A DNA stretch of 64,000 bases from a virus. Taxonomy: Duplodnaviria; Heunggongvirae; Uroviricota; Caudoviricetes. Below are positions 1 through 64,000 of the stretch, piece after piece. The first letter of the stretch is position 1. Every line of letters starts with the position of its first letter. The DNA lies in IMG/VR virus record IMGVR_UViG_3300029887_000004; one strand, given 5' to 3'. The notes under the pieces are model-generated. The model was not told where the DNA came from. It saw only the letters and a list, made by a program, of their open reading frames with translations, and made no database searches. Position numbers and translations under genes: made by a program.

Positions 1-2585
1 TTACCGAATTCTGAAAAGAAATTTAATTTAATAAGAATTTCTAATTGTTTCGAATTAACAGATGTGTTTTTAATATCAATCAACAAATCAATAAAAGTTT
101 CATATTGATTATCTTTTAATAAATATAAATCATCTCCGACATTATCTCCGATATATTTAATTGAAGACATTCCTTTATAAATCGTATTCTCTTTTTTATT
201 ATAAGAATATTTAGATGTCGAATGTCTAAATTTAATATCGCTCAATTTAATGCCAAAATATTCAAGTTCTTTTTTTAATTTATTAGTTCTAACCTGATCA
301 TCTGCATAATTATTGAAACATACACTATAATATTCCAATGGATAATTTACTTTCAAATATGCTCCATAACACATGTCAAGAGACACCGCTGCGGCATGAG
401 CACTACAAAATCCATACGCCATGCAGCTTTGAATCATTCCCCATGTCTCATCAAACATATCCTCGGCGCCAGTATTAATAATCCATTGTTTCTTCAGACG
501 TTCTTCTAAGTTGGCAAAATCCTGTGGTTTGATTTTTTTCTTTGAAATTTTCTTAATTAAACCAATGGATTCCGCCGGTGTAACCCCAAGCCAATTAAAA
601 TATTGCATTAAAGACTCTTGAAACAGAATATATCCATGTGTATCTTTCAAAACCTGATCAAGTTGTCGTGATCCAGTAGAATATTTCTCTCTATTTAAGA
701 ATGATTCTCTCCATGAATCAAAAGATGGACGGATGGCAGCTGCGATATGTGCGCCATCTTCAAAAGATGAAATTTTATATCTTTTCGCCTGTTGTGATCC
801 ATTATCACTATCGACTTGATTTAATGTACAAGTAATACCATTTTTAAATAAATCCCATATTTTTTGATCGTTTTTGATTTCATTCAAAAGTTGATTGGCA
901 GGAATAATTGGCTTCCCAATTTCTTTAAATGTTTCATCAATTAACTTCCATACTTTAACGATCAGATAATCGTTCTTTAATACTTTATATTCATCGGCTT
1001 CTGATGACGTAATAAGAACACAAAGATTTTCGCCCAAACGAGTAACGCCATATTCATATAATAAATTTTTATCACTAAGAATATGAGCACAGGGATGCAC
1101 TGAGCCAGACACAATGGTTCCAACATATTTATTCGCTTCTTCGATGATCGGTTTCCATTTTTCATCGTTTTCATATGATTCCAGGTTCTTGGCAACATCA
1201 TTAAATTCATCAAAATCCATACCTTTGGAACGACATACATTTCTAAATGCTTCAGACATTTGCATCGTTCCTGGTGCATACATAGGATAACAACCGTGTT
1301 CGCCTAATAATTCTCTCGACGCCTTAACAAACGGTTCCTGCTCTTTAACATTGAAGTCAATATCTGGTAAACTACGGTTTTCAAGTAATCTTGCCGTAGA
1401 AGCAAATCTATCAGGGAACAAAGGAAGATTAATCTTAAATCTATCTAACTGAGTCATGCCTAAAATTCTGTTAATATAGAAAGATCCGCAACTTCCTCTT
1501 CCGCCTCTTGTTAATACACCACCATATTTATTTACCGCTAAATCGACATTTTTTTCATTAAAAAGAAAATAGTCTGCAGTATGTACTTCATCATTAGTAT
1601 CTTCAATGATTTTCATTTCATATCTAATACCTTTTTTATATACTTTGTAATCTTCATCTGAAATATGTTCTTCTTTTCTGATTACTTTAAAGCGTTTATT
1701 TACCTCTGATTTTAGCAAATTTACACGTTGTTTTGGTGTGAGATCGGGATAAATAGTTGGCATCTTAATAGAATAATCAAGCTGTATTTCTTCGCAATTA
1801 TCAAAAATTAATGTATTATTAATAGCTGAATCGATTTGTTGTTCCGATAAAACACCTTGTTTTTTAAAGCGATGTATCATTGTCTCCGCAGTAGGATAAT
1901 CTAATATAAAATCATCTTCGCTGCCATAATTAATATGTTTTCCTTTTAATAACTCTAATCTTTCTTGCTTTCCTCCCTCGTCAATATAATGTGAATCATT
2001 AGCCGCAATTAAAGATAGCCCGTATTCATCGGAATAATATATAGCTTTTTTATTGATCTCAACTTGAATGGGATCAAGATGATCTTGAACCTCCAATAAT
2101 ACGTTATTCCCAAAATGCTCAAATAACGGCATAAAAATTTTATTAATCGAATCATCATCCCTCAACAAACCAGCGACACAGGCTGTGGTAATATAAACAT
2201 CATCTTTGTCTAGGGTCAATAAATCCTTCATAAAGAATCTCGGTTTATAATAAAATCCATTGATATTTGCCATGCTAGAAACATAGTTCATCTTTTTACG
2301 AGCAAGATCTGTTTTAGGAATAACAATTATATGATAGTTCCGTTTATCTTTTTCTGAAGCATCTGGAACAATATATCCTTCAATTCCTGCAATACATCGG
2401 ATTCCGTATTTATTACATAAAGTTCTTGCTTCAAATATATCTCCAAAACTACCATGATTCGTTGTGAAATAATTCATATGCCCGTATTCAATCGCCTTTT
2501 TTATATATTCTTCCTGTTTAGTGTTTGTGTCCGGCGAAAAAATATTGGAAATATGATCATGTTTATGATAATTATTATATCTCAA
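1..2585 (-). CDS. dnaE: DNA polymerase III alpha subunit (DnaE-type); N-terminal ~860 codons, C-terminus lies beyond the window start
   Basis: The minus-strand frame is open from 2621 to position 1, which is why the ORF track shows no stop here. The N-terminus reads MRYNNYHKHDHISNIFSPDTNTKQEEYIKKAIEYGHMNYFTTNHGSFGD, a PHP-domain signature (HxHxH, TNHG). The TTG start at 2585 has RBS GGAAGAGGAAA and overlaps the upstream stop as TTGA. The track's ATG at 2477 would remove the PHP motif. Confidence 0.8.
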   Translation of the reverse strand, partial: MRYNNYHKHDHISNIFSPDTNTKQEEYIKKAIEYGHMNYFTTNHGSFGDIFEARTLCNKYGIRCIAGIEGYIVPDASEKDKRNYHIIVIPKTDLARKKMNYVSSMANINGFYYKPRFFMKDLLTLDKDDVYITTACVAGLLRDDDSINKIFMPLFEHFGNNVLLEVQDHLDPIQVEINKKAIYYSDEYGLSLIAANDSHYIDEGGKQERLELLKGKHINYGSEDDFILDYPTAETMIHRFKKQGVLSEQQIDSAINNTLIFDNCEEIQLDYSIKMPTIYPDLTPKQRVNLLKSEVNKRFKVIRKEEHISDEDYKVYKKGIRYEMKIIEDTNDEVHTADYFLFNEKNVDLAVNKYGGVLTRGGRGSCGSFYINRILGMTQLDRFKINLPLFPDRFASTARLLENRSLPDIDFNVKEQEPFVKASRELLGEHGCYPMYAPGTMQMSEAFRNVCRSKGMDFDEFNDVAKNLESYENDEKWKPIIEEANKYVGTIVSGSVHPCAHILSDKNLLYEYGVTRLGENLCVLITSSEADEYKVLKNDYLIVKVWKLIDETFKEIGKPIIPANQLLNEIKNDQKIWDLFKNGITCTLNQVDSDNGSQQAKRYKISSFEDGAHIAAAIRPSFDSWRESFLNREKYSTGSRQLDQVLKDTHGYILFQESLMQYFNWLGVTPAESIGLIKKISKKKIKPQDFANLEERLKKQWIINTGAEDMFDETWGMIQSCMAYGFCSAHAAAVSLDMCYGAYLKVNYPLEYYSVCFNNYADDQVRTNKLKKELEYFGIKLSDIKFRHSTSKYSYNKKENTIYKGMSSIKYIGDNVGDDLYLLKDNQYETFIDLLIDIKNTSVNSKQLEILIKLNFFSEFG

Positions 2586-3853
2586 GATATTTCCTCTTCC
2601 TGAATCATTTGTAATAATTCATCTTCTTTAATTTCTGATAAATCATATTTGTCAATTATCTTCTTAGTTTTTACATAGGGAATTTGATGGCTACGACAAT
2701 AATTATTTAAACCAATTTTATTGCCATCATTTAAAACGATGTACACATACCGAACAGGTGGTGTAACATTAGAGTTGTTTATTATCTTTTTTTGGATAAT
2801 ATCAAAATTTTCAGGGAAAATATTCAAAATCATTTTATCGATTTTTCTACTTGATGGTGCGTCAAAAGTTAGATATCTTTCATCTTTTTGTCGCCAACAT
2901 ATTAGATTTAATCGTTCTTTGCATAATCGAATATATAAATCAATTTCTTCTTGAGAATATTCTGCTAAACATAAATACCAAGTATTTCCTCTGCTTCCAT
3001 CGTCAAGAACATGTAAACATAATCCAAGTTCATTGAGTTTTTGAATTTTTTGAATGCGTGGCATATCCCGAATTTCTTTTAATTGATTAATAATTCTTGT
3101 TTCAAATCTATAATATGGTTTGCATAGATATTGTTTATTCGTTCCAAAACTTGTATAAGTTGCTTCATAATATTTTGGTGGCGCACTACATAAATCCTTT
3201 AATTTATCATACTTCCAAAACACATAGTCCGTTTCGTCGATAGCATGACTTTCAATGTAAAGAGGTTGATCCTCCCTCTTATCTATATGTCCATCTCCTA
3301 ATGTTCCAAATAGAATTATTTGATATTGTAAGTCTGATAATTGCTTATACTCTTTAAAACTCCATTTATTCAATCTATGTATTTGAGAGCACCATTTTTG
3401 AATTACTCTTAACGATGCTCCACATTCATTCGCCATTTCCTGATGTGTCATACCTTGTACTATGTATCTTTGATAGCACCAATCATAATCCTGATAAACT
3501 GCTTTAAATTTCACATTATTACTTCGCATGTATTTATCGCCAAGTTTTAAACTACAGCTTTTAGCTCTTACGGATTTTACCGACAATCCCATCTCCTTAC
3601 CAATGTCGCACATGGACAATCCAATAGCATATAGAGATTTTAATTGTTCTTCTTCTTCCTTCGTCCATTTATGTCGTTTCTGATGAGTTGATTGTTCTTT
3701 ATCCAATAAATATCCATGTCGAATAAGCTGATTATAATGTTTGTTACATAATTCTTTAAGATAAAATTCGCCTTGTCGTTGCCAAATATAATATGCAATA
3801 CTTTCCGTGTCTCCACACACAGAACAACGTTTTTGTTTACTGGACTTACTCAT
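2582..3853 (-). CDS. freestanding homing endonuclease (LAGLIDADG-like motifs LFGTLGDGHIDKRE / LHVLDDGSRG) with N-terminal CxxC zinc finger and sigma-region-4-like HTH
   Basis: 423-aa ORF lying between dnaE and recJ. It has a CSVCGDTE zinc knuckle, an HTH (LKSLYAIGLSMCDIGKEMGLSVKSVR) and two LAGLIDADG-like motifs. Confidence 0.5.
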   Translation of the reverse strand: MSKSSKQKRCSVCGDTESIAYYIWQRQGEFYLKELCNKHYNQLIRHGYLLDKEQSTHQKRHKWTKEEEEQLKSLYAIGLSMCDIGKEMGLSVKSVRAKSCSLKLGDKYMRSNNVKFKAVYQDYDWCYQRYIVQGMTHQEMANECGASLRVIQKWCSQIHRLNKWSFKEYKQLSDLQYQIILFGTLGDGHIDKREDQPLYIESHAIDETDYVFWKYDKLKDLCSAPPKYYEATYTSFGTNKQYLCKPYYRFETRIINQLKEIRDMPRIQKIQKLNELGLCLHVLDDGSRGNTWYLCLAEYSQEEIDLYIRLCKERLNLICWRQKDERYLTFDAPSSRKIDKMILNIFPENFDIIQKKIINNSNVTPPVRYVYIVLNDGNKIGLNNYCRSHQIPYVKTKKIIDKYDLSEIKEDELLQMIQEEEIS

Positions 3854-5462
3854 CGGAATTCACCTCCGAAAGTACATCGCATACTGCTTTTAGTACAAAT
3901 TTTCTACCTAAAAATCCACTATCTAGACTACATACGGCTTCGAATTCATCATTCATAGTGCTATGATCCTCCATATCATCAAATGAACCGTCGAAGTTCC
4001 ATTTGATAATTTGCAAGTAATCATTCGGTTTTAGAACTAAATGTTTATAATCACTCATCTGACCAATTTCGTAATCACAAATATTATCCATATAAGCTCT
4101 TACTGGTTTAAAATTTGTGCCAGAAATACGATCAATCTTTTTGATATTCTCTACTAATCGTCTGGTAATATCTTCGACATCAATTTGAATATCAATGTCA
4201 ATTGTTGGTTCTTTAAACTCTGGAAGGTTTGTCTCAATATAAGACAAGAAATTGTTAAGATCTGATTTTTTGATTTGAATACCTGATGCAAGTTCATGTC
4301 CATCTGCTTTTGCATAACCACTATCATTGCAGATTTTTCGGAAATCATCAACACCTACGGCTCTCATAGAACCTGCATATTTTGATCCGATATCTTTCAA
4401 CACTAAGATCGGCTTTTGATACTTTTCTAGTAGCTTATTTCCTAATAAACCAGCAATACCATATTGTGTATCAATATATACAGCGATTACCTTTTGATCC
4501 TTTTGTTTCTCACATTGTTCATAAACATTCGGCAGTAAACGCTCCACTTCTTGATTTTGTTCTTCCTTACATTTCTTTAATGCTTTTACATAGGCAAGCA
4601 CTTGTTTGTTATTATCTTCTAGAAATGCATTCATAGCAGTTTCATTTTCACCCATACGGTTCGCTGCATTTACAATTGGAGCAATACTAAACGCAATTGC
4701 CGTACTGTTGAATTCAAATCCGCCGACAATCTTCTTAACTGCTGGATTATAAATCTTCTCAAGCCCTTTCGATACGATATAACGGTTTTCCATAACTGTC
4801 ATATCCATCATATCTCCAACTAGACCACATGCCGCAAGATCTACTAATTCATCTGCATAATCTGTAAGAAATTGTTCATCCAAATATTTACAGAATTTCC
4901 ATACCACCCCTGCTCCAGATAATTGCGAATTATCATAATCTCTTTGCGAAGAAATAAGAATTGTATATGTATCATATGGAATTTCCCGTTTAATTGCATG
5001 ATGGTCTAAAATAAGTACATCAATTCCTGCTTCTGACAATTCTTTATACTGAATTTCGTCTTCGTCTAAACTATCTACAACAATCAATAAATCTAAAGAT
5101 GCAAACTGCTGTAAATTTTGTCCTTTTAGTCCATGCTGCTTACCATCATCAATATATGTAAAAATGTCGTCGGTGAAATGTCTCAAATATCGCGTCATAA
5201 TCGTTCCTGCAGTGATTCCATCCGTATCTGTATCAAACAAAATACCAATGTTTTCGTTTTCTTCAATTGCCCGATTAATACGCATATATGCTTCATCAAT
5301 CCTATATAAAGAATCCAGTGGAAGCAAATCTTCTTCTGTCGGATTTAGAAAATGTTTCGCATCTTGAATTCCTCTTTGTTTAAGAATCGTATCAAATACT
5401 TCATCCTCATACATTCCTCTACAATCGTTTAAAATATTATAATTCTTCTTCGTCCTTATCAT
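3846..5462 (-). CDS. recJ: RecJ-like single-strand DNA exonuclease (DHH/DHHA1 phosphoesterase)
   Basis: Motifs LFDTDTDGITAG, ILDHHA (DHH) and a GSMRAVG region (DHHA1). Length 538 aa. Confidence 0.75.
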   Translation of the reverse strand: MIRTKKNYNILNDCRGMYEDEVFDTILKQRGIQDAKHFLNPTEEDLLPLDSLYRIDEAYMRINRAIEENENIGILFDTDTDGITAGTIMTRYLRHFTDDIFTYIDDGKQHGLKGQNLQQFASLDLLIVVDSLDEDEIQYKELSEAGIDVLILDHHAIKREIPYDTYTILISSQRDYDNSQLSGAGVVWKFCKYLDEQFLTDYADELVDLAACGLVGDMMDMTVMENRYIVSKGLEKIYNPAVKKIVGGFEFNSTAIAFSIAPIVNAANRMGENETAMNAFLEDNNKQVLAYVKALKKCKEEQNQEVERLLPNVYEQCEKQKDQKVIAVYIDTQYGIAGLLGNKLLEKYQKPILVLKDIGSKYAGSMRAVGVDDFRKICNDSGYAKADGHELASGIQIKKSDLNNFLSYIETNLPEFKEPTIDIDIQIDVEDITRRLVENIKKIDRISGTNFKPVRAYMDNICDYEIGQMSDYKHLVLKPNDYLQIIKWNFDGSFDDMEDHSTMNDEFEAVCSLDSGFLGRKFVLKAVCDVLSEVNSDE

Positions 5463-6465
5463 CTCCTAATATTAAAATTTCGTTGTTTATGATATACTCA
5501 AATTTTTCTTTACCCATATCGGTTGCAGAAACCTTTGGAGCATAATATGATTTTGTCCAGTCCCAATATCCAATTTCAAATTCTGCAAACTTAGAATAAT
5601 GACGTAAAACTTCTACGTTTCTCTTTATATTGTCTAATTCATATCCTTGGTCATGAAGAAAAATCACCTTTGTTGGATGTAATTCCACAAGCAACCGTGC
5701 TTGCTGTACACTTAAACTTCCACTCATAAGCGCAACAGCGTTTCTATATCCGTATGAATAACATTGCATGACAAATTTTTCTGCTTCTCCTACAAAAACA
5801 GTATTTTCAACAAGATATTGATAATTTTGAGCATAACCAAATAATGTAGTGCTGCAACGCCCAGGATAAGAATAAAAATATTTCAGCGCACCATCTGAAA
5901 TCTCATAATTAAAACGTTCCTTAACCCCAATAAGCTGTCCATATTCATTTCTGATGGGAATAACAATTCCTTGTGATTCGACGTCATATCTTATTCCAAA
6001 ATACTGCTGTGCATCTAATGATATATGATCTTTCAAAAATCGAATATTGGGATAGAATTGAAATTCATCTAATATTTTTTCGTCATATATTTTCGATTGA
6101 ATAGTGTTTCTTTGTCTAATCTTTTCATAAAATCCTCCAAAGATTCCTTTTTTCTGAAAGTGTCCAATATAATCTTGTATATGTAACACATTTTTTATTT
6201 CATTTAAGACATCTACAAATTCTACTTTTCTTTGATTGGTGATATATGAAAAGATATCAGTTTGAATATTTCGAGCATAATCATGTACGTACAGCCAATT
6301 ATTATTTTCAAGCTTAATTACAATACTTTTTTTCGAAGATTCTTCATCTCGCCCAAATTGCATGTATGTAGACCGAATGACTATATTACAGTATCCAAAA
6401 TGTTCCAATACCTCTTTTAGTTTTTCTGGATTATTTAATAGCTCTTTTTTAATATCTTCTAACAT
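5437..6465 (-). CDS. DnaG-like DNA primase (TOPRIM domain)
   Basis: VFVGEAEKFV (the TOPRIM ExxD region) followed by KVIFLHDQG. Sits directly upstream of the helicase gene. Confidence 0.65.
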   Translation of the reverse strand: MLEDIKKELLNNPEKLKEVLEHFGYCNIVIRSTYMQFGRDEESSKKSIVIKLENNNWLYVHDYARNIQTDIFSYITNQRKVEFVDVLNEIKNVLHIQDYIGHFQKKGIFGGFYEKIRQRNTIQSKIYDEKILDEFQFYPNIRFLKDHISLDAQQYFGIRYDVESQGIVIPIRNEYGQLIGVKERFNYEISDGALKYFYSYPGRCSTTLFGYAQNYQYLVENTVFVGEAEKFVMQCYSYGYRNAVALMSGSLSVQQARLLVELHPTKVIFLHDQGYELDNIKRNVEVLRHYSKFAEFEIGYWDWTKSYYAPKVSATDMGKEKFEYIINNEILILGDDKDEEEL

Positions 6466-37398: not shown

Positions 37399-38880
37399 TC
37401 ATGATATCAAATTATTAAAGTTATTTTGGATTGTTGATTCTACGGCATTGTTTCGTGCTTTGTACTCCCAAATAAAACCTCGACATGATTTTTGTCTATG
37501 TGCACAACATGCTTGTATATTTGTATGTGCTATCATAAAAAAATTTGCTGCTTCGGTTATGCTGCTCCATTCTTTAATAATATTTCCATTTTTATCTTTT
37601 TGATAAACTGCTTTTGCTGATGTTTTATTTGGAGAAGATGCCCATTTAATTGCATCTTCTATGTTCAAATTATCATCGTCATGTGCCCATGCATATCCAC
37701 CAGCTGTTTTACAATGTCTTTTACAGCAGTCTGAAATTTGACCATATGAAATTCCTGTCCTTCTATGTGCTTCTTTCAAGCTTTCATATCTAGCAACAAT
37801 AGTCCTCGTATTGATATCAATTTGAACAACTTTTCTTTTTGGTACAAGTTTATGTTTGATCTGATATTCGTTCTTTATATCTTGTGATGTAAAAATAAAA
37901 TTTTTATTTGTGATATTATTTTCAAAAATTTCTTGATAAAATTTTTCAAATATTTGTTCCTTTACATTAAAATTTGTATATTTAATTAATAAAAGTGGTA
38001 TTTGGTTTTTATTACAATATGATGTCTTTATCTCATCCTTATGTTTTCTATCTTGAAAATTTTCTTCTTTTACTAAATCAGATTCTCCACAAAACGTAAA
38101 TGGAGTATAATGTTGTTGGCCTTGTAATTCAATTAAAAACATTAGCTCTTTATTGACTGGATGGAATATAGCAAAATCAAAAGGAAGACGTTCTTTATCT
38201 TTACAATCTTCAAATTTATACTGGGATATATACTGTATGTTCTTCTGCTGAATATATTTTTCTAGTTCATATTCTGCTGCAGATATAAGACATCCACATG
38301 ATTTTTTATGCCCAGAACATAGTTCAGATGTACATGCAATACAAGTATTTTCACATTCACATTTACAATACCAATACTGTTTCCCGTCTTTTATAAACGC
38401 TCTTTTATATGGCGTTAATTTTCCAAAATGCTGATTTGTTATATCTTTTGCTAAAATTTTTCTCATTTTTTCAGTTCTAACACAACCACAACTTGTTGTA
38501 TGTCCCGATCTTAAATGTGTATCTGTGACATTTACAATATTTCCACAATCACATATACATTCCCATATAACTTTTGTTGAACCATTTGGTTGCATTTTAT
38601 TCTCTAAACGACTTAATACTACTAATCTTCCAAATCTTTGTCCGACTTTTGTACCAGTCTCTTGTTGATTTGGTTTGCAGTTTTCACAATATTGATAATT
38701 ATTATTACGAACTTTATATGCATTAAGTTCTTTAATATTTCCACAATTTATACATTCGCATACATAGTATGGTTTTGATTGTCCACTTGGTGTTATTCTG
38801 CTCTCTGCCATTCCTATAATTCTATAACACCCATATATCATTCCAATTTTATCTTTTGATTTGTTTCTAATATTTAGCAC
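37399..38880 (-). CDS. homing endonuclease: N-terminal zinc fingers, Vsr/DUF559-like nuclease core (FDFAIF...LIELQGQQH), two C-terminal NUMOD/IENR-type DNA-binding repeats
   Basis: Tandem C-terminal repeats IVARYESLKEAHRRTGISYGQISDCCK and IIKEWSSITEAANFFMIAHTNIQACCAHR. The gene is immediately adjacent to the disrupted pncB. Confidence 0.6.
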   Translation of the reverse strand: MLNIRNKSKDKIGMIYGCYRIIGMAESRITPSGQSKPYYVCECINCGNIKELNAYKVRNNNYQYCENCKPNQQETGTKVGQRFGRLVVLSRLENKMQPNGSTKVIWECICDCGNIVNVTDTHLRSGHTTSCGCVRTEKMRKILAKDITNQHFGKLTPYKRAFIKDGKQYWYCKCECENTCIACTSELCSGHKKSCGCLISAAEYELEKYIQQKNIQYISQYKFEDCKDKERLPFDFAIFHPVNKELMFLIELQGQQHYTPFTFCGESDLVKEENFQDRKHKDEIKTSYCNKNQIPLLLIKYTNFNVKEQIFEKFYQEIFENNITNKNFIFTSQDIKNEYQIKHKLVPKRKVVQIDINTRTIVARYESLKEAHRRTGISYGQISDCCKRHCKTAGGYAWAHDDDNLNIEDAIKWASSPNKTSAKAVYQKDKNGNIIKEWSSITEAANFFMIAHTNIQACCAHRQKSCRGFIWEYKARNNAVESTIQNNFNNLIS

Positions 38881-45607: not shown

Positions 45608-47155
45608 TTATACAGCCATTCCTTCTTGATCCGTATGGGTCGCTTCGTACTCTAGACGATTATATTTTCTCCAAATCATTCCACGCCTTGTTCTTACAAT
45701 TTTTACTTTGTCTAATAAATTACTCTTTAGTAATTCATATTCTTCTTGTTTTATATTTATAGAAGGGTATTTGACTGTTTGTGCTTTATATGTAAATCGT
45801 ATTTTGAAATTACCATTAGGTAGTTTTTGCATGGATTCTACTTCTGCGATATTTCCTTTATGCTTTCCACTATTTATGTAAATTAAATCTCCACATTTCA
45901 AACAATATGAATTACAAACAAAAGTGCGTTTACCAGGTTTAATTTTCTTACCACGAAATTGTCTCATATTGTTTATATATTCTTTTTGCGTGACTCGTTT
46001 AGACGGAGCATTTGGAAGCCTTTCCTTATATAATGTATTACCACTTTTTTCTTTTCCATCACGTACATCTATGTATTTTGCATCACTAAATGTCTCCATG
46101 CTCCTGTCATTGCATCGTTTTTGATCTACAATATAGATATTCTCCGTTAATGTCACATCCTTGTAATCATTAATACAAACAGCATCCGTATAATGAAATT
46201 TTCTTAAACCGGTATTCCTTCTATTAATTTTTGTTTGATATCCATACCCAACTTTGACGTCATATTTGCCAGAAAGCCTTTCAAAAAGTTCCCAACGAAC
46301 CATATTCATATAAGTACTGTCTTTGTATGTATCCGATAACTTCATACTCTTGACTTTCTCAAAATATTTATTGTCGTTATTATTGGAATGCACCTTCCGA
46401 TGACAACTATGACATAAAGATATTAGATTACTTGGTTTATCGGTTCCTCCCTTTGAACGCGGTTGGATATGATGAACTTCAATCACAACATTTTTATTTG
46501 CGCCACACAACCGACATGTATGTTTATCTCTATCTCTAACATAAGCTGCTGCATTTTCATATCCTTTCATTTCTCCATTTTGATAATCTTTTCCTGATAT
46601 TTCTTTCCCGTCAGCTAAAGCTTTTATCATCTGGATATCAAATTTAGCAACTTCTACAATTACCTTATCTACTGGAATCCATGACGCAATTTTATCTATT
46701 AAACGAATATGTGAATCAATTTTATGTTGTATTGATGGAGCAAACCATCCTTCTTCATTTCCATTTTTATATGTTGGATTATGTATAGTTTTGTAGTCAA
46801 TGTTCTTATTTTTTCTATACCTAATTCTGGATCTTCTCGTTCTTCTATATCCATTTCGATTTGTTAATCTATCCGACATTCCTTTTAATAATTCGACTTG
46901 TCCAGCTAAATACTCATGATAATTATCACTGACAGAAAATCCTATGTTCAAATATCCACTATCAATTTTTAATTCGAAAATATCTCTATTTTCAAAATCG
47001 CTTTGATAATCGTCTATTCGTTTTATTACTAATGGATCATGATTAATGATTTTTGCTTTATTATTTCTAAGCAAATAACCAGCTCTACCGTTTGAAATCG
47101 GTACACACGGTTTATCATTTTTATCTACTACTAAAGTAAAATCTAAATATTCCAT
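45608..47155 (-). CDS. iscB: IscB (OMEGA) RNA-guided nuclease, Cas9 ancestor: PLMP-like domain, RuvC-I, Arg-rich bridge helix, RuvC-II, HNH, RuvC-III
   Basis: N-terminus KPCVPISNGRAGYLLRNNKAKII...PLVIKR (PLMP domain); RuvC-I ELKIDSGYLNIGFSV; bridge helix RTRRSRIRYRKNKN; RuvC-II IVEVAKFD; HNH CRLCGAN...EVHHIQPRSKGGTDKPSNLISLCHSCHRKVH; RuvC-III HYTDAVCIN. 515 aa. Confidence 0.85.
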   Translation of the reverse strand: MEYLDFTLVVDKNDKPCVPISNGRAGYLLRNNKAKIINHDPLVIKRIDDYQSDFENRDIFELKIDSGYLNIGFSVSDNYHEYLAGQVELLKGMSDRLTNRNGYRRTRRSRIRYRKNKNIDYKTIHNPTYKNGNEEGWFAPSIQHKIDSHIRLIDKIASWIPVDKVIVEVAKFDIQMIKALADGKEISGKDYQNGEMKGYENAAAYVRDRDKHTCRLCGANKNVVIEVHHIQPRSKGGTDKPSNLISLCHSCHRKVHSNNNDNKYFEKVKSMKLSDTYKDSTYMNMVRWELFERLSGKYDVKVGYGYQTKINRRNTGLRKFHYTDAVCINDYKDVTLTENIYIVDQKRCNDRSMETFSDAKYIDVRDGKEKSGNTLYKERLPNAPSKRVTQKEYINNMRQFRGKKIKPGKRTFVCNSYCLKCGDLIYINSGKHKGNIAEVESMQKLPNGNFKIRFTYKAQTVKYPSINIKQEEYELLKSNLLDKVKIVRTRRGMIWRKYNRLEYEATHTDQEGMAV

Positions 47156-57015: not shown

Positions 57016-57369
57016 TCATTTCTTCTGCTCGTCAATTAAATCCAATACTTCGCATAAAGCCTTATATCTGCCTTCTTCTAAGTCATTCATATTGCGATTT
57101 TTTGTTTCATTTTCTAAATCCTCAATAAGCTGCTCGATTTTAATTCTTAATTCGTCCACTGTTATACCTCCAATTCTCTTTCTAATCTCTTCGTTACTTG
57201 AACACTTCTGCAACTGATTTATTGAAACATGTCGCTGTTCAATATAACCATCTTCCATTTCAAAATCAACATCTGCTTCCTCGTTTGGATTTTCCCATGC
57301 ATAATCTACAAATATTCCAAACAATTTTAAATTTTTGTGAAACACTTTATCACCTTTTTTAAATTTCAT
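57016..57369 (-). CDS. hypothetical protein, tandem paralog (shared C-terminal motif RIKIEQLIEDxENxxxNRNMNDLExGxY...LDLxDE)
   Basis: Shares a ~45-aa C-terminal domain with the gene at 57370..57678. Confidence 0.5.
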   Translation of the reverse strand: MKFKKGDKVFHKNLKLFGIFVDYAWENPNEEADVDFEMEDGYIEQRHVSINQLQKCSSNEEIRKRIGGITVDELRIKIEQLIEDLENETKNRNMNDLEEGRYKALCEVLDLIDEQKK

Positions 57370-57678
57370 TTATTTCACCTCATCTAACAAATCCAATATA
57401 TCTCTATATCCATCATATTTTCCTTGCTCTAAATCATTCATATTACGATTTCCAATACTATTTTCAAAATCTTCTACAAGTTGTTCAATCTTAACTCGAA
57501 GATCCCTCATAGTATTATCTACTGACACATCAATAACATTTAATCCAGCGTCTTCAAGATCCTGCTCAACACAATATCTAACAGTTTCTTCACTGCTTTC
57601 ATCATCATAGAATTCAGCTTCAACTTCTACTGTTAGTTTTGCTTTTATTTTATTGGGCTTATCTATTATTCTTGCCAC
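57370..57678 (-). CDS. hypothetical protein, tandem paralog of 57016..57369
   Basis: C-terminus reads RDLRVKIEQLVEDFENSIGNRNMNDLEQGKYDGYRDILDLLDEVK. Confidence 0.5.
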   Translation of the reverse strand: MARIIDKPNKIKAKLTVEVEAEFYDDESSEETVRYCVEQDLEDAGLNVIDVSVDNTMRDLRVKIEQLVEDFENSIGNRNMNDLEQGKYDGYRDILDLLDEVK

Positions 57679-58988: not shown

Positions 58989-59032
58989 TTTTAATTATCC
59001 TTTCCGTCCAAAGAAAACTTGGTTTCATTTTA

Positions 59033-59254
59033 TTATTCTTCAAATTTTCTGTTATTTATAATGTCATATTTTCCATAATTTTGTTCAATTCCATTCCATA
59101 AAAATGTAAGTTTTCCATCTGGATATAGACTTATACAAGTATTCGTAACTAGATCTGGATTTTCTTTTGAATGATAATACATTCCACCTTTTTCATGTTC
59201 GTACATTTGTACATATGTATAACCGTCCAAATATATTTCTTTTGGATATTTCAT
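59033..59254 (-). CDS. hypothetical protein
   Basis: 73-aa ORF. Confidence 0.45.
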   Translation of the reverse strand: MKYPKEIYLDGYTYVQMYEHEKGGMYYHSKENPDLVTNTCISLYPDGKLTFLWNGIEQNYGKYDIINNRKFEE

Positions 59255-59332
59255 ATAATCACCTCAATATTATATTCTCCATTATGACGAAAACGGGACT
59301 GTCTTTGTAACAATCCCATTTCTCTTTTAAAA

Positions 59333-59515
59333 CTATCGTTTGCATTCCATACAAACGTCTTTTCCATCATAATCATCAGGTCGCTCATAATGTCCAGGAA
59401 AACAATGCATACAACTATAACATGATTGATCCCATCCCATTGGACATTTCTTTGTCTCTTTTGCTTCATGCGTATAAATATGTTTTTCTTCATAATAACC
59501 CATAGTTTTTAACAT
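59333..59515 (-). CDS. hypothetical Cys-rich protein
   Basis: 60-aa ORF, preferred over the overlapping 59251..59493 frame. Confidence 0.4.
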   Translation of the reverse strand: MLKTMGYYEEKHIYTHEAKETKKCPMGWDQSCYSCMHCFPGHYERPDDYDGKDVCMECKR

Positions 59516-59525
59516 ATTATACTTC

Positions 59526-59840
59526 CTATTTTTTCGCTAAATCGTAATCTGAACCATTCACAAATTCTCCATCTGTATTTGTGTCACAATATTCAAGTGC
59601 ATATTCTTCTACATCAACGCAATCAGGATGCTCGTCATATGTACATTTATATTTTGCCAATTCTGCTTTTGCTTCATTGAGCTGATCGTATGTCCATCGT
59701 TTTAATTCTTCTGGATCAGTATTGGGTCCATAAATACAATCTCCTTCAGAGTAATTTTTGAACTGTTTTTTCGTATAAGATCCTTCAGCATGTCTTAAAA
59801 TAATTGTATTATAATATTCTCCCATTCTATTTTCCTCCAA
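59526..59840 (-). CDS. hypothetical protein
   Basis: 104-aa ORF. Confidence 0.5.
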   Translation of the reverse strand: MEENRMGEYYNTIILRHAEGSYTKKQFKNYSEGDCIYGPNTDPEELKRWTYDQLNEAKAELAKYKCTYDEHPDCVDVEEYALEYCDTNTDGEFVNGSDYDLAKK

Positions 59841-59894
59841 CTTTTATATAATTATTTATATTATATCATATTCCTCAGCAATAACATAGTTTTT

Positions 59895-61946
59895 CTATGC
59901 AGTTTCACCCAACAAAATTTTTCTAAACAGGCTTTCAAAAATCGGAACACAAATACTATTGCCAGCCTGTTTATATAATGCCATTCTATATCTTCCTCGT
60001 TTCTGTTGGACAGATGCAGCTGCTTCATAATCCTGATCCGTATATCCCATAAGTCGCCAGCATTCTCTTTCTGTAAGATATCTGTATTTTCCATTATGTA
60101 AGTCAATTACCTGTGCAGGTGTCCGATCCTGGCGAGTCGTGATTGTATAAGCATATTGGTCAATTACGGTTGCTCTTCTAATTCCGGATGCTCCAATACA
60201 TTCCAGAATGCTCGGTTGTGTTACCTCATATACTGGATCAACTTTCTGTTCCAAAAACTCATGAATGTTTCTCATTGGCGTTCTAATCAGATCAGAAAAA
60301 TCAAATTCCTTTCCTTTTAAACAACTTACAGTGAAATAGCGTTCTCTTGCTTGCGGGATACCAAACTCTCTTGCGTCTAATAGTTCATATGTACTTGTAT
60401 ATCCAAGTTTACTTAATTCTTCCATATATCTGTCGTGATTATGCACCATATATTTACTTCTGACATTTTTGACATTTTCCCAAATCACATATTTTGGTTT
60501 CCATTCTCCCATCTGTTTAATAATATTAATTGTTTCCCACATAAGACTCGATCTTGTCCCAGACCCTTCTTCTGCGCCAGCTCCATGATTTGTTCTTCCA
60601 TTTCCAGTAGCTGTGCCTTGATGTCCAGCAATAGACATATCCTGGCAATTATGCACTATACATCCATTTGCCGTATAAGAATGAGCCTCTTCCACTTCTA
60701 TATCATAAACAGTTTCTTTGTTTTCTGTATGTTCAATTTTTGTTATTGGAGACCATAAATATCCATCTTCAATAATTGACATTCTTCTATTGCACTTTAA
60801 AGTCCATCGTATTGTATATGTGTCTTTTTGATGAATCTTTCTTCCTTCTATACATCCAAATTCTTGACGTTTAAATTTACTTATTTGAAACGGTATATTA
60901 TATGCTTTCACAATCAACTGCCCAATTCCATATAATAGTTTCCTATTAACTGAAGTTATAGAATATGTATATTTTTTACATGATCCATCACTATCAACAT
61001 AACCCTCTATTAATTTCCTCACGAGATTAATTGGCATATCAAATACAAATCCAGGTAAATATTTACCTTCAGCACCTTTTCCAAATAGATTGCAAAAAGT
61101 AGCTAATTCTTTATTTGTAAATTGATATTTATATGTCGTATTGTCTTCGACTTTTACGTAATGTGCCCATTCTGGTATTTTTTCTTCAAATAGTTTATCT
61201 TCGCCATTTATTTTTGATGTACATATAATCATGCTAGAAACATTATTGTTTCTGTCTTTCCTCGTTCTTGTCCATCCGTCACCTAAAAATCTTCCTATCA
61301 AATACCATAATCCTTCGTCTTTCATGTTCAGATTATTTTTAATATATTTAGATCTTCCCCTTGTACACTCAACACCATCCCATTTGGGGACAATTGAATT
61401 TTGATTTATTGGGGTTCCGACCAAATAATTTTTATTTAGATCTTTAGCTTCGACCCATTTTGGTTCCGAAAATTTTCTTTTCATCGTCTTCTTCCCATCA
61501 ATAAATGGGTGAATATATGTCTTTTCTCTTACATAAAATTTATGATTGCTAGTAGTTTTTATTTCATGACAATTAGATGCTTTTAGTTTTATAATATTTT
61601 TTTCGCCATTGTTGAATACATTAATTACTTTGTGAAATAAACCATCATGAGAAACAACTTCTTCATTAACGGAAACATCTTTTATTTCTCTAAAACCATT
61701 TTTAGTCAATACTAATGTATCTCCTGTAAAACATGGACTTCCATGTATCAAAATATCTGGACGAAGATTGTATCCGACCACTGTTTGTGTTTTATAGTGA
61801 AGATCTTTTGCGAACATTGCATTGTATGATCTAACCGCTGCTTCGTCAATCTCGACATAATCAATTGATTTAACAGGAATACCGATATTCCGTAATGCAC
61901 ACCGTGGGCTTCCAATTCCACCGAATAATTCTAAAATTTGTACCAT
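59895..61946 (-). CDS. dcm: DNA (cytosine-5)-methyltransferase interrupted by a 362-aa intein carrying a LAGLIDADG homing endonuclease
   Basis: Extein motifs: I LFGGIGS, IV GSP|CQDMS, VI IWENVKNV, VIII GIPQARERYF. The intein runs from CFTGDTLVLT to ...GCIVHN, then the +1 Cys (residues 72-433, DNA 60648..61733). Two LAGLIDADG motifs, LIGRFLGDGW and LIEGYVDSDGS. The insertion sits exactly at the catalytic PC|Q. Confidence 0.8.
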   Translation of the reverse strand: MVQILELFGGIGSPRCALRNIGIPVKSIDYVEIDEAAVRSYNAMFAKDLHYKTQTVVGYNLRPDILIHGSPCFTGDTLVLTKNGFREIKDVSVNEEVVSHDGLFHKVINVFNNGEKNIIKLKASNCHEIKTTSNHKFYVREKTYIHPFIDGKKTMKRKFSEPKWVEAKDLNKNYLVGTPINQNSIVPKWDGVECTRGRSKYIKNNLNMKDEGLWYLIGRFLGDGWTRTRKDRNNNVSSMIICTSKINGEDKLFEEKIPEWAHYVKVEDNTTYKYQFTNKELATFCNLFGKGAEGKYLPGFVFDMPINLVRKLIEGYVDSDGSCKKYTYSITSVNRKLLYGIGQLIVKAYNIPFQISKFKRQEFGCIEGRKIHQKDTYTIRWTLKCNRRMSIIEDGYLWSPITKIEHTENKETVYDIEVEEAHSYTANGCIVHNCQDMSIAGHQGTATGNGRTNHGAGAEEGSGTRSSLMWETINIIKQMGEWKPKYVIWENVKNVRSKYMVHNHDRYMEELSKLGYTSTYELLDAREFGIPQARERYFTVSCLKGKEFDFSDLIRTPMRNIHEFLEQKVDPVYEVTQPSILECIGASGIRRATVIDQYAYTITTRQDRTPAQVIDLHNGKYRYLTERECWRLMGYTDQDYEAAASVQQKRGRYRMALYKQAGNSICVPIFESLFRKILLGETA

Positions 61947-62003
61947 AATAATTTCCTTTCTTATATGAGGCGATAAACAGGAAGTCTACCGCCTCGTTGA
62001 TGT

Positions 62004-63044
62004 TTAGATAATATTTTTCATGATTTCTACAGATTCTTTTTGTGCTTTTTCTTCCATTCCTCTTACATATAACAGCGTTGTATTAATTGATGCATGATGT
62101 AAATTTTTCTGTACAAGCACAATATCACCCGTTGCGTTGTACAATGTGGTACCATATGTTGCCCTTAGTTTATGTGGACTAATTGTTTTTCCTTTTATGT
62201 TACAAGCATATTTTTTTGTAATATCTGAAATTGCACTTGTTGACAATCTCTTTCCGGTTTTCCCAAGAAACAGAGCTGGCGTATCGCGTGCTGTTACAAG
62301 TTGATCTCTGTATGCTAACCATTTCTGCAATTCATCTAAAACTTTTGGAATTAAAATGAATGTATGAACTTTCTTTCCCTTATCTGTTACAATCAAAGTT
62401 CCTTTATCCATATTTAAGTTTTCTATATCCATATTGGATAACGCTGCACAACGTACACCTGTAGAAAGGAAAAGTTTTATAACTGCAATATCCCTTTGTG
62501 ACCAAATAGCTGATGGCTTTCTTGTTTTTCCTGTTAGCTTATGATCAACATTATAAAGATACGTTTGTGTTTCTTCTGGTGTCAAATAACTCTTTTCTCT
62601 TCTTTCTATTGTTCTCTGTTGCTCTCTCTTTTTTGGCTTCGCAATTTCTTCCATATAATTTTTCGAAAAAATTTTATATGCAAACATACATTTTGAAAAA
62701 AGTTTTAACGCAGAATAAACTGCGATTTGATAAGAAGAAACTGTTTCTAATCCATTGTCTTTATCTTGTATTTTTGCCATATAGGATACAAAATCTCTCA
62801 GTTCGAGATCTTCTTCTTTTTCTTTTCCGGTGAACTTTAGAAATTTTAATACATCACACATATAAACATATTTTGTCTTTTCTGATAAATCATGCATATA
62901 TAAAAGGAAGTCTTGTAGATTCTTAGACTTCCCTTTCATAGTGTTTTCGATTTTTCGTTTATATTTAAGTTTTTCTTCCTCTAAACCTGTCTGGACTCTT
63001 TCATTCATTTTATTCCTCCAATCATAAATCGGCAATTGCAGCAA
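62004..63044 (-). CDS. int: tyrosine recombinase / phage integrase
   Basis: LFLSTGVRCAAL, HKLRATYGT and LHHASINTTLLYV supply the R...HxxR...Y catalytic residues. Confidence 0.85.
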   Translation of the reverse strand: MLQLPIYDWRNKMNERVQTGLEEEKLKYKRKIENTMKGKSKNLQDFLLYMHDLSEKTKYVYMCDVLKFLKFTGKEKEEDLELRDFVSYMAKIQDKDNGLETVSSYQIAVYSALKLFSKCMFAYKIFSKNYMEEIAKPKKREQQRTIERREKSYLTPEETQTYLYNVDHKLTGKTRKPSAIWSQRDIAVIKLFLSTGVRCAALSNMDIENLNMDKGTLIVTDKGKKVHTFILIPKVLDELQKWLAYRDQLVTARDTPALFLGKTGKRLSTSAISDITKKYACNIKGKTISPHKLRATYGTTLYNATGDIVLVQKNLHHASINTTLLYVRGMEEKAQKESVEIMKNII

Positions 63045-63136
63045 TAATTATAATAATAATGACCCCAATTGCGACAAAGGTTCCATAGTATCCAACGGCA
63101 TATTCAAGTGACATAATATCTTCCTCCTAAAATTCA

Positions 63137-63475
63137 CTATTCAAAAATGTATGACGGAAACATCAGCTCTAATTCATCTTTTGAAATTTCCATATTTTTG
63201 TTTTGGCTTTTAAATTCTTCATCGAACTGATGATTTAATTTCAAAACATTGTAAGCACTTTCAATCACCCACTCCCTGATGAACTCCATATCTGATTCCG
63301 ACAAATCATATCCATATAGTTCTACATACCTAATCAACTTTTTTCTTATACTTGTTTGTGTTAGGTTCCATTTCTTTTCTAAATTCTCGAACTTACGCAC
63401 ATCTGTTTGACAATATTCTTTGAACGTTTTTCTTTTCATATATTCTCCTTTCTTTGCAACAAAAAACCGGCACAT
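63137..63475 (-). CDS. hypothetical protein
   Basis: 112-aa ORF; the true start is probably the internal MKRKTF. Confidence 0.5.
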   Translation of the reverse strand: MCRFFVAKKGEYMKRKTFKEYCQTDVRKFENLEKKWNLTQTSIRKKLIRYVELYGYDLSESDMEFIREWVIESAYNVLKLNHQFDEEFKSQNKNMEISKDELELMFPSYIFE

Positions 63476-63486
63476 TTCTGTACCGG

Positions 63487-63672
63487 TTAATAACGTTCCT
63501 CCTTTCTGATTTTATTCAATTTTTCTTTCTTTTGATTGATGTGTCGTACTTTTGCTCGTGGCCTATATTTATCACAATGTTGACAATAATGATTGTGATC
63601 TGCTTCTCTCCCTTTACTACATTGTCCTGCGCAAATATAGTATAAGCATGGTGTTTCTCTTGTCTTACTCAT
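63487..63672 (-). CDS. hypothetical Cys/His-rich protein
   Basis: 61-aa ORF. Confidence 0.45.
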   Translation of the reverse strand: MSKTRETPCLYYICAGQCSKGREADHNHYCQHCDKYRPRAKVRHINQKKEKLNKIRKEERY

Positions 63673-63938
63673 CTTTTATCCACTCCTATCGGCATGATAA
63701 TATAACCAGAAATACGGAACCCTCTGGACGCAAGTTCTTTTAAATCTGTTGCAATTCTACCTTCTTTCAATAATTTATGCATATTACAATGGATAGTGCC
63801 TTTGCTTTTAATTCCAACACCTTTTCCAATCTCGTCATAAGACGGAGCATAACCATGCTCAAAAATGTAGTCTTTGCAAAATTCATAGATTTTATCTGTT
63901 GTGTCCTGTATGTTATCATATTTATTTACCATAATCAT
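63669..63938 (-). CDS. LexA-like winged-helix DNA-binding protein (no peptidase domain)
   Basis: GYAPSYDEIGKGVGIKSKGTIHCNMHKLLKEGRI resembles the LexA N-terminal domain. Confidence 0.45.
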   Translation of the reverse strand: MIMVNKYDNIQDTTDKIYEFCKDYIFEHGYAPSYDEIGKGVGIKSKGTIHCNMHKLLKEGRIATDLKELASRGFRISGYIIMPIGVDKR

Positions 63939-64000
63939 TCTCCCTTCTCTTTAAAAACATCACTGACCTGCCACGAAATCATCTCATTTCCAAGCTCAAT

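Follow-up and report, generated by a model that had tools for sequence, protein, structure and literature searches.

Background

Inteins in phage DNA-modification enzymes are known from mycobacteriophages, in which the N6/N4 methylase inteins DNMT-1 and DNMT-2 have a patchy distribution, with evidence that they have moved horizontally from one methylase allele to another (Kelley et al. 2016, PMC5050341; Gosselin et al. 2023, PMC9957025). Their host proteins are PF01555 amino-methyltransferases and not C5 enzymes, and their insertion site also differs from the one considered here, which lies in motif IV, the catalytic motif of C5 cytosine methyltransferases. For the latter enzymes, the literature search returned an intein in one source only, a 2025 survey of actinobacteriophages in which the intein of Propionibacterium phage B22 is the sole "DNA methylase, C-5" entry of supplementary file 8 (class 1, LAGLIDADG) and is listed without analysis or polymorphism data (bioRxiv 10.1101/2025.01.02.630785). 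No paper discussing the motif IV site was found in this search, and methylases are not mentioned in Novikova et al. 2016. The present analysis concerns a stretch of 64,000 nucleotides (nt) of DNA from a virus of the Caudoviricetes (IMG/VR record IMGVR_UViG_3300029887_000004; hereafter the window, meaning the whole stretch), in which a gene encoding a C5 methyltransferase is interrupted at motif IV by an intein carrying a predicted LAGLIDADG homing endonuclease. The mechanism by which such an element would act is a textbook one that brings nothing conceptually new; what is new is the population-level signal of homing found in closely related phages of ca. 200 kb, the splicing mechanism itself being ordinary.

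A C5 methyltransferase gene interrupted at motif IV

The complete precursor gene extends over 59895..61946 on the minus strand, as do all of its parts described below, and was delimited from the list of open reading frames (ORFs), from Pfam and NCBIfam matches and from a Shine-Dalgarno sequence, AAGGA, read 8 nt 5' of the ATG start. It comprises 2052 nt and encodes 683 amino acids (aa) followed by a stop codon. The product matches the Pfam family DNA_methylase (PF00145) with 141.3 bits (cut-off 22), the match being split into two stretches of the protein, and the NCBIfam dcm model (TIGR00675) with 133.5 bits (cut-off 100.65). When aligned with seven intein-free homologues (65-74% identical), the protein displays one clean insertion of 362 residues between P71 and C434, at a position where the homologues run HGSP-CQD[MF]S without a gap. 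The exact junctions are Pro71/Cys72 and Asn433/Cys434, so that the protein reads HGSP/CFTGDTLV...GCIVHN/CQDMS (slashes mark junctions here and below).

The N-extein (residues 1-71; 61734..61946), defined by the alignment and by reading of the sequence, contains motif I (ELFGGIGS) and ends with HGSP, the first half of motif IV. The intein itself (residues 72-433; 362 aa, 1086 nt; 60648..61733) corresponds exactly to the gap in the intein-free homologues. The C-extein (residues 434-683; 59898..60647) opens with CQDMS, the second half of motif IV, and further contains ENV (motif VI), QARER (VIII), RYLTERE (IX) and GNS (X). Among the seven homologues, invariant or near-invariant positions include G10 and G12 of motif I, H68-G69-S70-P71 together with C434-Q435 of motif IV, E490-N491-V492 of motif VI, and Q532, R534 and R536 of motif VIII. 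Once residues 72-433 are removed, motifs I (FxGxG), IV, VI, VIII, IX and X are present in order and the resulting 321-aa sequence aligns end to end, motif IV included, with the solved C5 methyltransferases M.MpeI and M.HhaI (phmmer). This predicted length is exactly that of the intein-free allele found in sister genomes (see below).

These results bear out the first-pass annotation, which was made from the sequence alone and had proposed a Dcm-type methyltransferase of ca. 321 aa rebuilt after removal of residues 72-433: the motifs are confirmed and the length equals that of the intein-free alleles. The comparison with intein-less homologues also revealed a single, precise and in-frame insertion at motif IV, and not the uninterrupted alignment that a native fusion would give. 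As to the insertion site, the GSP/CQDMS junction given in the body of that annotation is correct, but the PC/Q of its title is not: the true junction is P/CQ and the intein starts with a cysteine of its own, Cys72. In base composition, the intein does not stand out from the remainder of the methyltransferase gene.

The first codon of the C-extein (TGC, 60645..60647) encodes Cys434, which is invariant and aligns with the cysteine of FPCQDLS in M.MpeI, and which would act both as the +1 nucleophile of splicing and as the catalytic nucleophile of motif IV (PCQ). Because the 362-residue insert parts Pro71 from the catalytic Cys434 inside motif IV, the unspliced precursor should be inactive, and it is reasonable to infer from the sequence that the methyltransferase needs splicing to be active. 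A catalytic cysteine that doubles as the splicing nucleophile would make this protein a neat natural case of a splicing-activated enzyme.

Splicing residues and predicted endonuclease

Profile searches with the 683-aa protein matched Pfam Intein_splicing (PF14890) with 53.6 bits as well as the two NCBIfam models for intein termini, intein_Nterm at residues 72-139 and intein_Cterm at residues 413-434, while Pfam Hom_end_hint reached only 19.8 bits at residues 72-140, below its cut-off of 32.1. Conservation was assessed in two sets, one consisting of 46 intein-bearing homologues, whose identity to the window protein is 41-59%, and the other of 14 excised inteins that were aligned separately. Residues found invariant in the 46 homologues comprise Cys72 of block A, Thr132 and His135 of block B (TxxH, here T132-S-N-H135), Lys295 and Pro298 of block D, His432-Asn433 of block G, the +1 residue Cys434, and the glycines G218, G224 and G315. 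Asp223, Asp320-Gly321 and, in block F, Asp415 and His422 are at least 90% conserved in the same set and invariant in the 14 excised inteins; the endonuclease residues correspond to D152/G153 and D249/G250 in intein numbering and are invariant in these 14 as well.

From the intein_Nterm match and this conservation, the N-terminal splicing region was placed at residues 72-140 (61527..61733), with Cys72 of block A and T132-x-x-H135 of block B, and, from the intein_Cterm match and the conservation, the C-terminal splicing region at residues 411-433 (60648..60716), with block F (VYDIEVEEAHSYTANG) and block G (CIVHN). The LAGLIDADG homing endonuclease domain lies between them at ca. residues 205-375 (60822..61334), its boundaries being approximate and derived from Pfam LAGLIDADG_3, the structural model and Foldseek. 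Conservation locates its two motifs at residues 213-225 (LWYLIGRFLGDGW; 61272..61310), with Asp223 as the putative catalytic residue, and at residues 309-321 (VRKLIEGYVDSDG; 60984..61022), with Asp320 in the same putative role. The two LAGLIDADG helices end as LIGRFLGD223G and LIEGYVDSD320G, each with an acidic residue followed by a glycine. Judged from its sequence, the predicted residue set is complete for a class 1 intein with a two-motif LAGLIDADG endonuclease.

For the precursor, AlphaFold2 gave a model with a mean predicted local distance difference test score of 85.6 and block means of ca. 77-98 over the intein. In this model, a helix at residues 211-223 is followed by strands at 224-229 and 235-244, and a second helix at 306-320 by strands at 321-324 and 327-332, which is the predicted alpha-beta-beta-alpha-beta-beta-alpha core fold of a LAGLIDADG endonuclease. 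The intein as a whole is modelled with a Hint fold, and its top Foldseek matches are solved inteins: against the PDB the best one is TliVMA (7qsu; E = 4.7e-16, template modelling score of 0.70 on the target), PI-SceI, PhoVMA, PI-PfuI and PI-PkoII being also retrieved. The extein part of the model matches Dnmt2, M.MpeI and M.HhaI. At the sequence level, the intein aligns with the mini-inteins gp41-1 and DnaX at its termini and with PI-PkoII in its middle part. PI-SceI and the archaeal VMA inteins (1vde, 1lws; TliVMA 7qsu, 7qss) share the same layout of a Hint domain with a nested two-motif LAGLIDADG endonuclease and are the best structural matches (E = 1e-14 to 5e-16), but their identity to the intein of the window is only 13-17%, their host protein is a V-ATPase and they come from other organisms. 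Taken together, the matches of both intein-terminus profiles and of Intein_splicing, the conserved splicing residues, the precise insertion and the predicted fold confirm the intein that the first-pass annotation had proposed; its LAGLIDADG homing endonuclease is supported as well, by two conserved motifs and the predicted fold, the LAGLIDADG_3 score being borderline (see below).

A glycine-rich stretch (GHQGTATGNGRTNHGAGAEEGSG) occurs in the C-extein after motif IV (residues 441-466; ca. 60549-60626) and is modelled with very low confidence. Some 10-11 of its residues are shared with the closest intein-free homologues and absent from more distant intein-bearing ones. This stretch may be an extended catalytic loop.

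Presence and absence of the intein in sister phages

A scan of IMG/VR with the C-extein retrieved 23 loci (L002-L023 and L041) having a match that is 94-100% identical. For 18 of the 23 the contig measures 104-217 kb, and for nine of these ca. 200-217 kb, which suggests that the window comes from a phage lineage with genomes of roughly 200 kb. The intein is polymorphic in this lineage, with 6 alleles that carry it (the window, L001, L004, L005, L010 and L011) and 17 that do not. The gene comprises 2052 nt with the intein and, in sister genomes without it, exactly 966 nt (321 aa), a difference of 1086 nt. When compared to the intein-free locus L002, the window is collinear, with 95-97% identity, and the methyltransferase gene differs by a single gap of 1086 nt at ca. 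60649-61740 of the window.

The inteins and their exteins have diverged to very different extents. The intein copies of the six alleles differ at 0-10 of 1086 nt (mean 0.41%) while the exteins of the same alleles differ by 2.9-5.8% (mean 4.0%), and at synonymous sites the mean difference is 0.015 for the intein and 0.148, ca. ten-fold more, for the exteins. With a nonsynonymous difference of 0.011 against this synonymous value of 0.148, the exteins of intein-bearing genes are under purifying selection. In a neighbour-joining tree of the exteins, intein-bearing alleles are interspersed among intein-free ones, and the closest or tied closest extein is intein-free for four of the six (L004, L005, L010 and L011).

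The sequence directly 5' of the intein carries a further mark. It reads GGA AGT CCN in five of the six intein-bearing alleles, the exception being L011 with GGT TCT CCN, the form found in the 17 intein-free alleles except L017, which has GGT AGT CCA. Given these sequences, this switch of serine codon is probably best explained as a short co-conversion tract brought in with the intein. The polymorphism, the clean indel, the contrast in divergence, the scattered haplotypes and the mark in the flank together indicate that the intein has probably undergone recent and repeated homing in this lineage rather than vertical inheritance. Near-identical phage genomes with and without the intein thereby constitute an unusually clean natural dataset on homing, on the length of co-conversion tracts and on target-site escape in uncultured phages.

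Proposed mechanism and alternative explanations

The reading that we favour, and to which a probability of ca. 85% is given, is that class 1 splicing activates the methyltransferase, that the LAGLIDADG enzyme cuts intein-free alleles and that repair copies the intein into them. After translation, the intein would fold and Cys72 would perform an N-S acyl shift; Cys434, the future nucleophile of the methyltransferase, would then attack in a trans-esterification, Asn433 would cyclise, and the exteins would be ligated into a 321-aa enzyme having an intact GSPCQDMS catalytic loop. The two-motif LAGLIDADG endonuclease of the released intein would cut intein-free alleles at the sequence encoding GSP/CQD, around GGTTCTCCT/TGCCAGGAT (the intein-free site being taken as ...GGTTCTCCT/TGCCAGGATATG...), and recombinational repair from an intein-bearing genome present in the same co-infection would copy the intein in, which is homing. 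We infer splicing and DNA cleavage, as well as the activity and specificity of the methyltransferase, from the sequence and the structural model only.

Several points weigh against this scenario. The LAGLIDADG_3 family (PF14528) scores 22.6 bits on the whole protein for a cut-off of 22.5, with no single stretch passing alone, although scores reach 32.7 bits in homologues; since the score of the window protein is barely at the cut-off, the motifs and the predicted fold are the main grounds for calling an endonuclease. Near the junctions, and only there, the structural model has low confidence, at residues 69-71 and at residues 435-466, directly after the C-terminal junction. Recombination that homogenised the intein segment alone, with no endonuclease involved, could in principle give the same contrast in divergence, and precise loss of the intein, instead of gain, could lie behind some of the intein-free alleles. 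Finally, the loci are metagenome assemblies, in which chimeras of closely related strains could blur haplotypes, yet would not create an intein.

The marginal LAGLIDADG_3 score would also suit an intein that is competent for splicing but has a dead endonuclease, that is to say a fixed or decaying passenger inherited vertically, sometimes lost and no longer mobile, and many inteins do carry degenerate endonucleases as part of the homing cycle. Such a passenger is unlikely here: D223, D320 and Lys295 of block D have been kept over homologues as distant as 41-59% identity, all 87 inteins found at this same site are full size (324-372 aa; see below), and vertical inheritance cannot explain a synonymous divergence ten-fold lower in the intein across several extein haplotypes. 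That the intein has instead become adaptive, as a conditional switch delaying or gating the methyltransferase through, for instance, a disulfide between Cys72 and Cys434 or another way in which the environment controls splicing, would be in line with both junction nucleophiles being cysteines, with the +1 cysteine being the enzyme's own nucleophile and with the occupancy of the same site in many lineages. Other inteins, such as the RadA intein, have been shown to splice conditionally (PMC4513877), and redox-conditional splicing via Cys72/Cys434 that times methylation during infection is a possibility. Nevertheless, 17 of the 23 sister alleles do well without the intein, which argues against a needed regulatory role, and selfish inteins typically sit in conserved catalytic motifs (PMC2814812), so that we consider a switch improbable.

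A permanent domain fusion that does not splice, either as a disrupted pseudogene or as a nuclease-methylase fusion, was the alternative named in the first-pass annotation; nothing specific speaks for it, and it is very unlikely in view of the canonical splicing residues, which are all present and invariant, of the insertion being exactly in frame with same-lineage alleles lacking precisely these 1086 nt, and of the purifying selection on the exteins documented above. An assembly artefact or chimera could be suspected from the entirely metagenomic origin of the data, but besides the window the same 2052-nt gene recurs in L001, from ENA, and in four contigs of IMG/VR, all five being independent assemblies, and the 90% identity cluster of its protein holds 730 member sequences, which makes this explanation hardly credible. 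Splicing combined with homing thus accounts best for the locus.

Codon variants 3' of the insertion point

Among alleles without the intein, the lineage shows variation at the glutamine of motif IV, which is normally conserved: PCQ, PCN (TGC AAT) or PCV occurs at the position homologous to 60642-60647 of the window. According to junction reads, PCQ occurs without the intein in 8 alleles (L002, L003, L006-L009, L016 and L023), PCN in 10, nine of them named (L012-L015, L018, L019, L021, L022 and L041), and PCV in L017. PCN is also the motif of DNMT3 enzymes. The intein was found next to PCQ only, in 6 of 14 PCQ alleles against none of 11 PCN or PCV alleles (Fisher p = 0.02, for alleles that are phylogenetically related).

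One may speculate from these sequences that the intein is in the midst of invading a natural phage population and that PCN and PCV represent escape alleles which resist cleavage and retain methylase activity, but we regard this as doubtful. If true, such an escape would amount to an arms race inside a catalytic motif. The PCQ-only occupancy was rejected as proof of resistance, since co-conversion during homing itself restores PCQ and the alleles share ancestry.

Phage context

Directly upstream of the methyltransferase gene, at a distance of 57 nt, an ORF located at 62004..63044 (minus strand) matches Phage_integrase with 90 bits, in agreement with the first-pass annotation, which had placed the gene beside the integrase. 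A functional link between integrase and intein was considered and dropped because intein-free relatives have the same upstream sequence. The product of this ORF is a tyrosine recombinase; further upstream, 63669-63938 (minus strand) encodes a small protein whose DNA-binding domain is of the LexA type, and in the related contig L001 a serine recombinase occurs nearby (2528-3421). The recombinase and LexA-type genes hint at a temperate or plasmid-like lifestyle for phages whose sister contigs reach up to ca. 200 kb. The L001 contig, retrieved from ENA, encodes a 99% identical protein in the same gene order.

Other PHROG matches in the window are to a RecJ-like exonuclease, to a DnaB-like helicase and to an RNA ligase, as well as to several phage families without known function and to free-standing HNH endonucleases. 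Free-standing genes resembling HNH or homing endonucleases are located, all on the minus strand, at 37399-38880 and 45608-47155, both with strong PHROG HNH matches, and at 2582-3853 with a weaker one; with these genes elsewhere in the window, the phage has, in addition to its intein, several nuclease elements of a selfish kind. When 59000-64000 of the window was compared to GenBank phages by megablast, no match was found; the lineage is represented in metagenomic collections alone.

Two features were observed downstream of the methyltransferase gene. Small ORFs at 59013-59494, just downstream of it, contain indels when compared to L002, L009, L012 and L004, in sister phages that are otherwise 95-97% identical, and thus form a variable block beside the gene. 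Further away, two adjacent small ORFs at 57016-57369 and 57370-57678 (both on the minus strand) share a near-identical C-terminal stretch, R[IV]KIEQL[IV]ED[LF]EN...NRNMNDLE[EQ]G[RK]Y...[VI]LDL[IL]DE, and on this basis look like tandem paralogues.

Spread of the site and comparison with known inteins

In a search of 5.8 billion proteins, this exact site was found to be occupied by an intein of 324-372 aa in 87 of the 120 best-scoring protein clusters, with an extein identity to the window protein that is as low as ca. 40%. The junctions mostly read [G][SF]P/C...HN/C[QT]; the first cysteine is invariant in all 87 inteins and 83 of them end with HN. No mini-intein was found among these 87, and one of the clusters corresponds to an NCBI nr entry from Clostridium saccharobutylicum. 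In some homologues of 900-1160 aa, the occurrence of a second intein was considered and rejected, the extra length lying within the methyltransferase itself. Species-representative prokaryotic genomes yielded only four same-site cases (L082, L083, L084 and L087, from Clostridium, Bacilli and Oscillospiraceae metagenome-assembled genomes), and a scan of bacterial and archaeal genomes with the intein alignment retrieved mostly unrelated inteins in other host proteins. The rarity of the same-site intein among prokaryotic representatives fits an element that would be mainly phage-borne.

The motif IV Pro/Cys junction of C5 methyltransferases is therefore a widely used intein site, occupied in at least 87 clusters and in several cultured phages, P1-like ones included. 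The statement of the first-pass annotation that inteins are uncommon in phage DNA-modification genes is overstated for this site, given the 87 occupied clusters out of 120 and the cultured phages B22, A4 and RCS47.

The intein sequences closest to that of the window among GenBank phages are the NrdD inteins of Lactococcus phages 949, P1048, AM4 and AM5 (32-33% identity over the full length), but these reside in an anaerobic ribonucleotide reductase, so that both extein and insertion site are unlike those of the window. The same motif IV site is occupied in other GenBank phages detected by tblastn, namely in A4_120 of Escherichia phage A4 (Asteriusvirus; L162), with GGFP/C...VVHN/CQAWS, in dmt of the P1-like phage RCS47 (L164, locus 2270-5557), with GGTP/C...VVHN/CQAFS, in dmt of a P1 isolate, and in Mannheimia phage vB_MhS_587AP2 (L163), in which the frame stops shortly after the C-terminal junction and the gene looks disrupted. 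The inteins of A4, RCS47 and 587AP2 are ca. 340 aa long, have LAGLIDADG motifs and are 27-30% identical to that of the window; their records make no mention of an intein and label the ORF as a methyltransferase or split it into a "hypothetical protein" and a "methyltransferase" (587AP2 being in pieces). The nearest counterpart in the literature, gp50 of Propionibacterium phage B22, belongs to the same C5 family and has a full-size LAGLIDADG intein at the same site (GGSP/CFVAGTSV...GIVVHN/CQDLS), but both its exteins and its intein are distant in sequence from those of the window, and B22 is a 37-kb actinophage with a high guanine-plus-cytosine (GC) content when the window is low-GC and belongs to a lineage of ca. 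200-kb contigs. The element described here is thus not a new kind of element but a new member of an intein allele that had been catalogued and left essentially uncharacterised.

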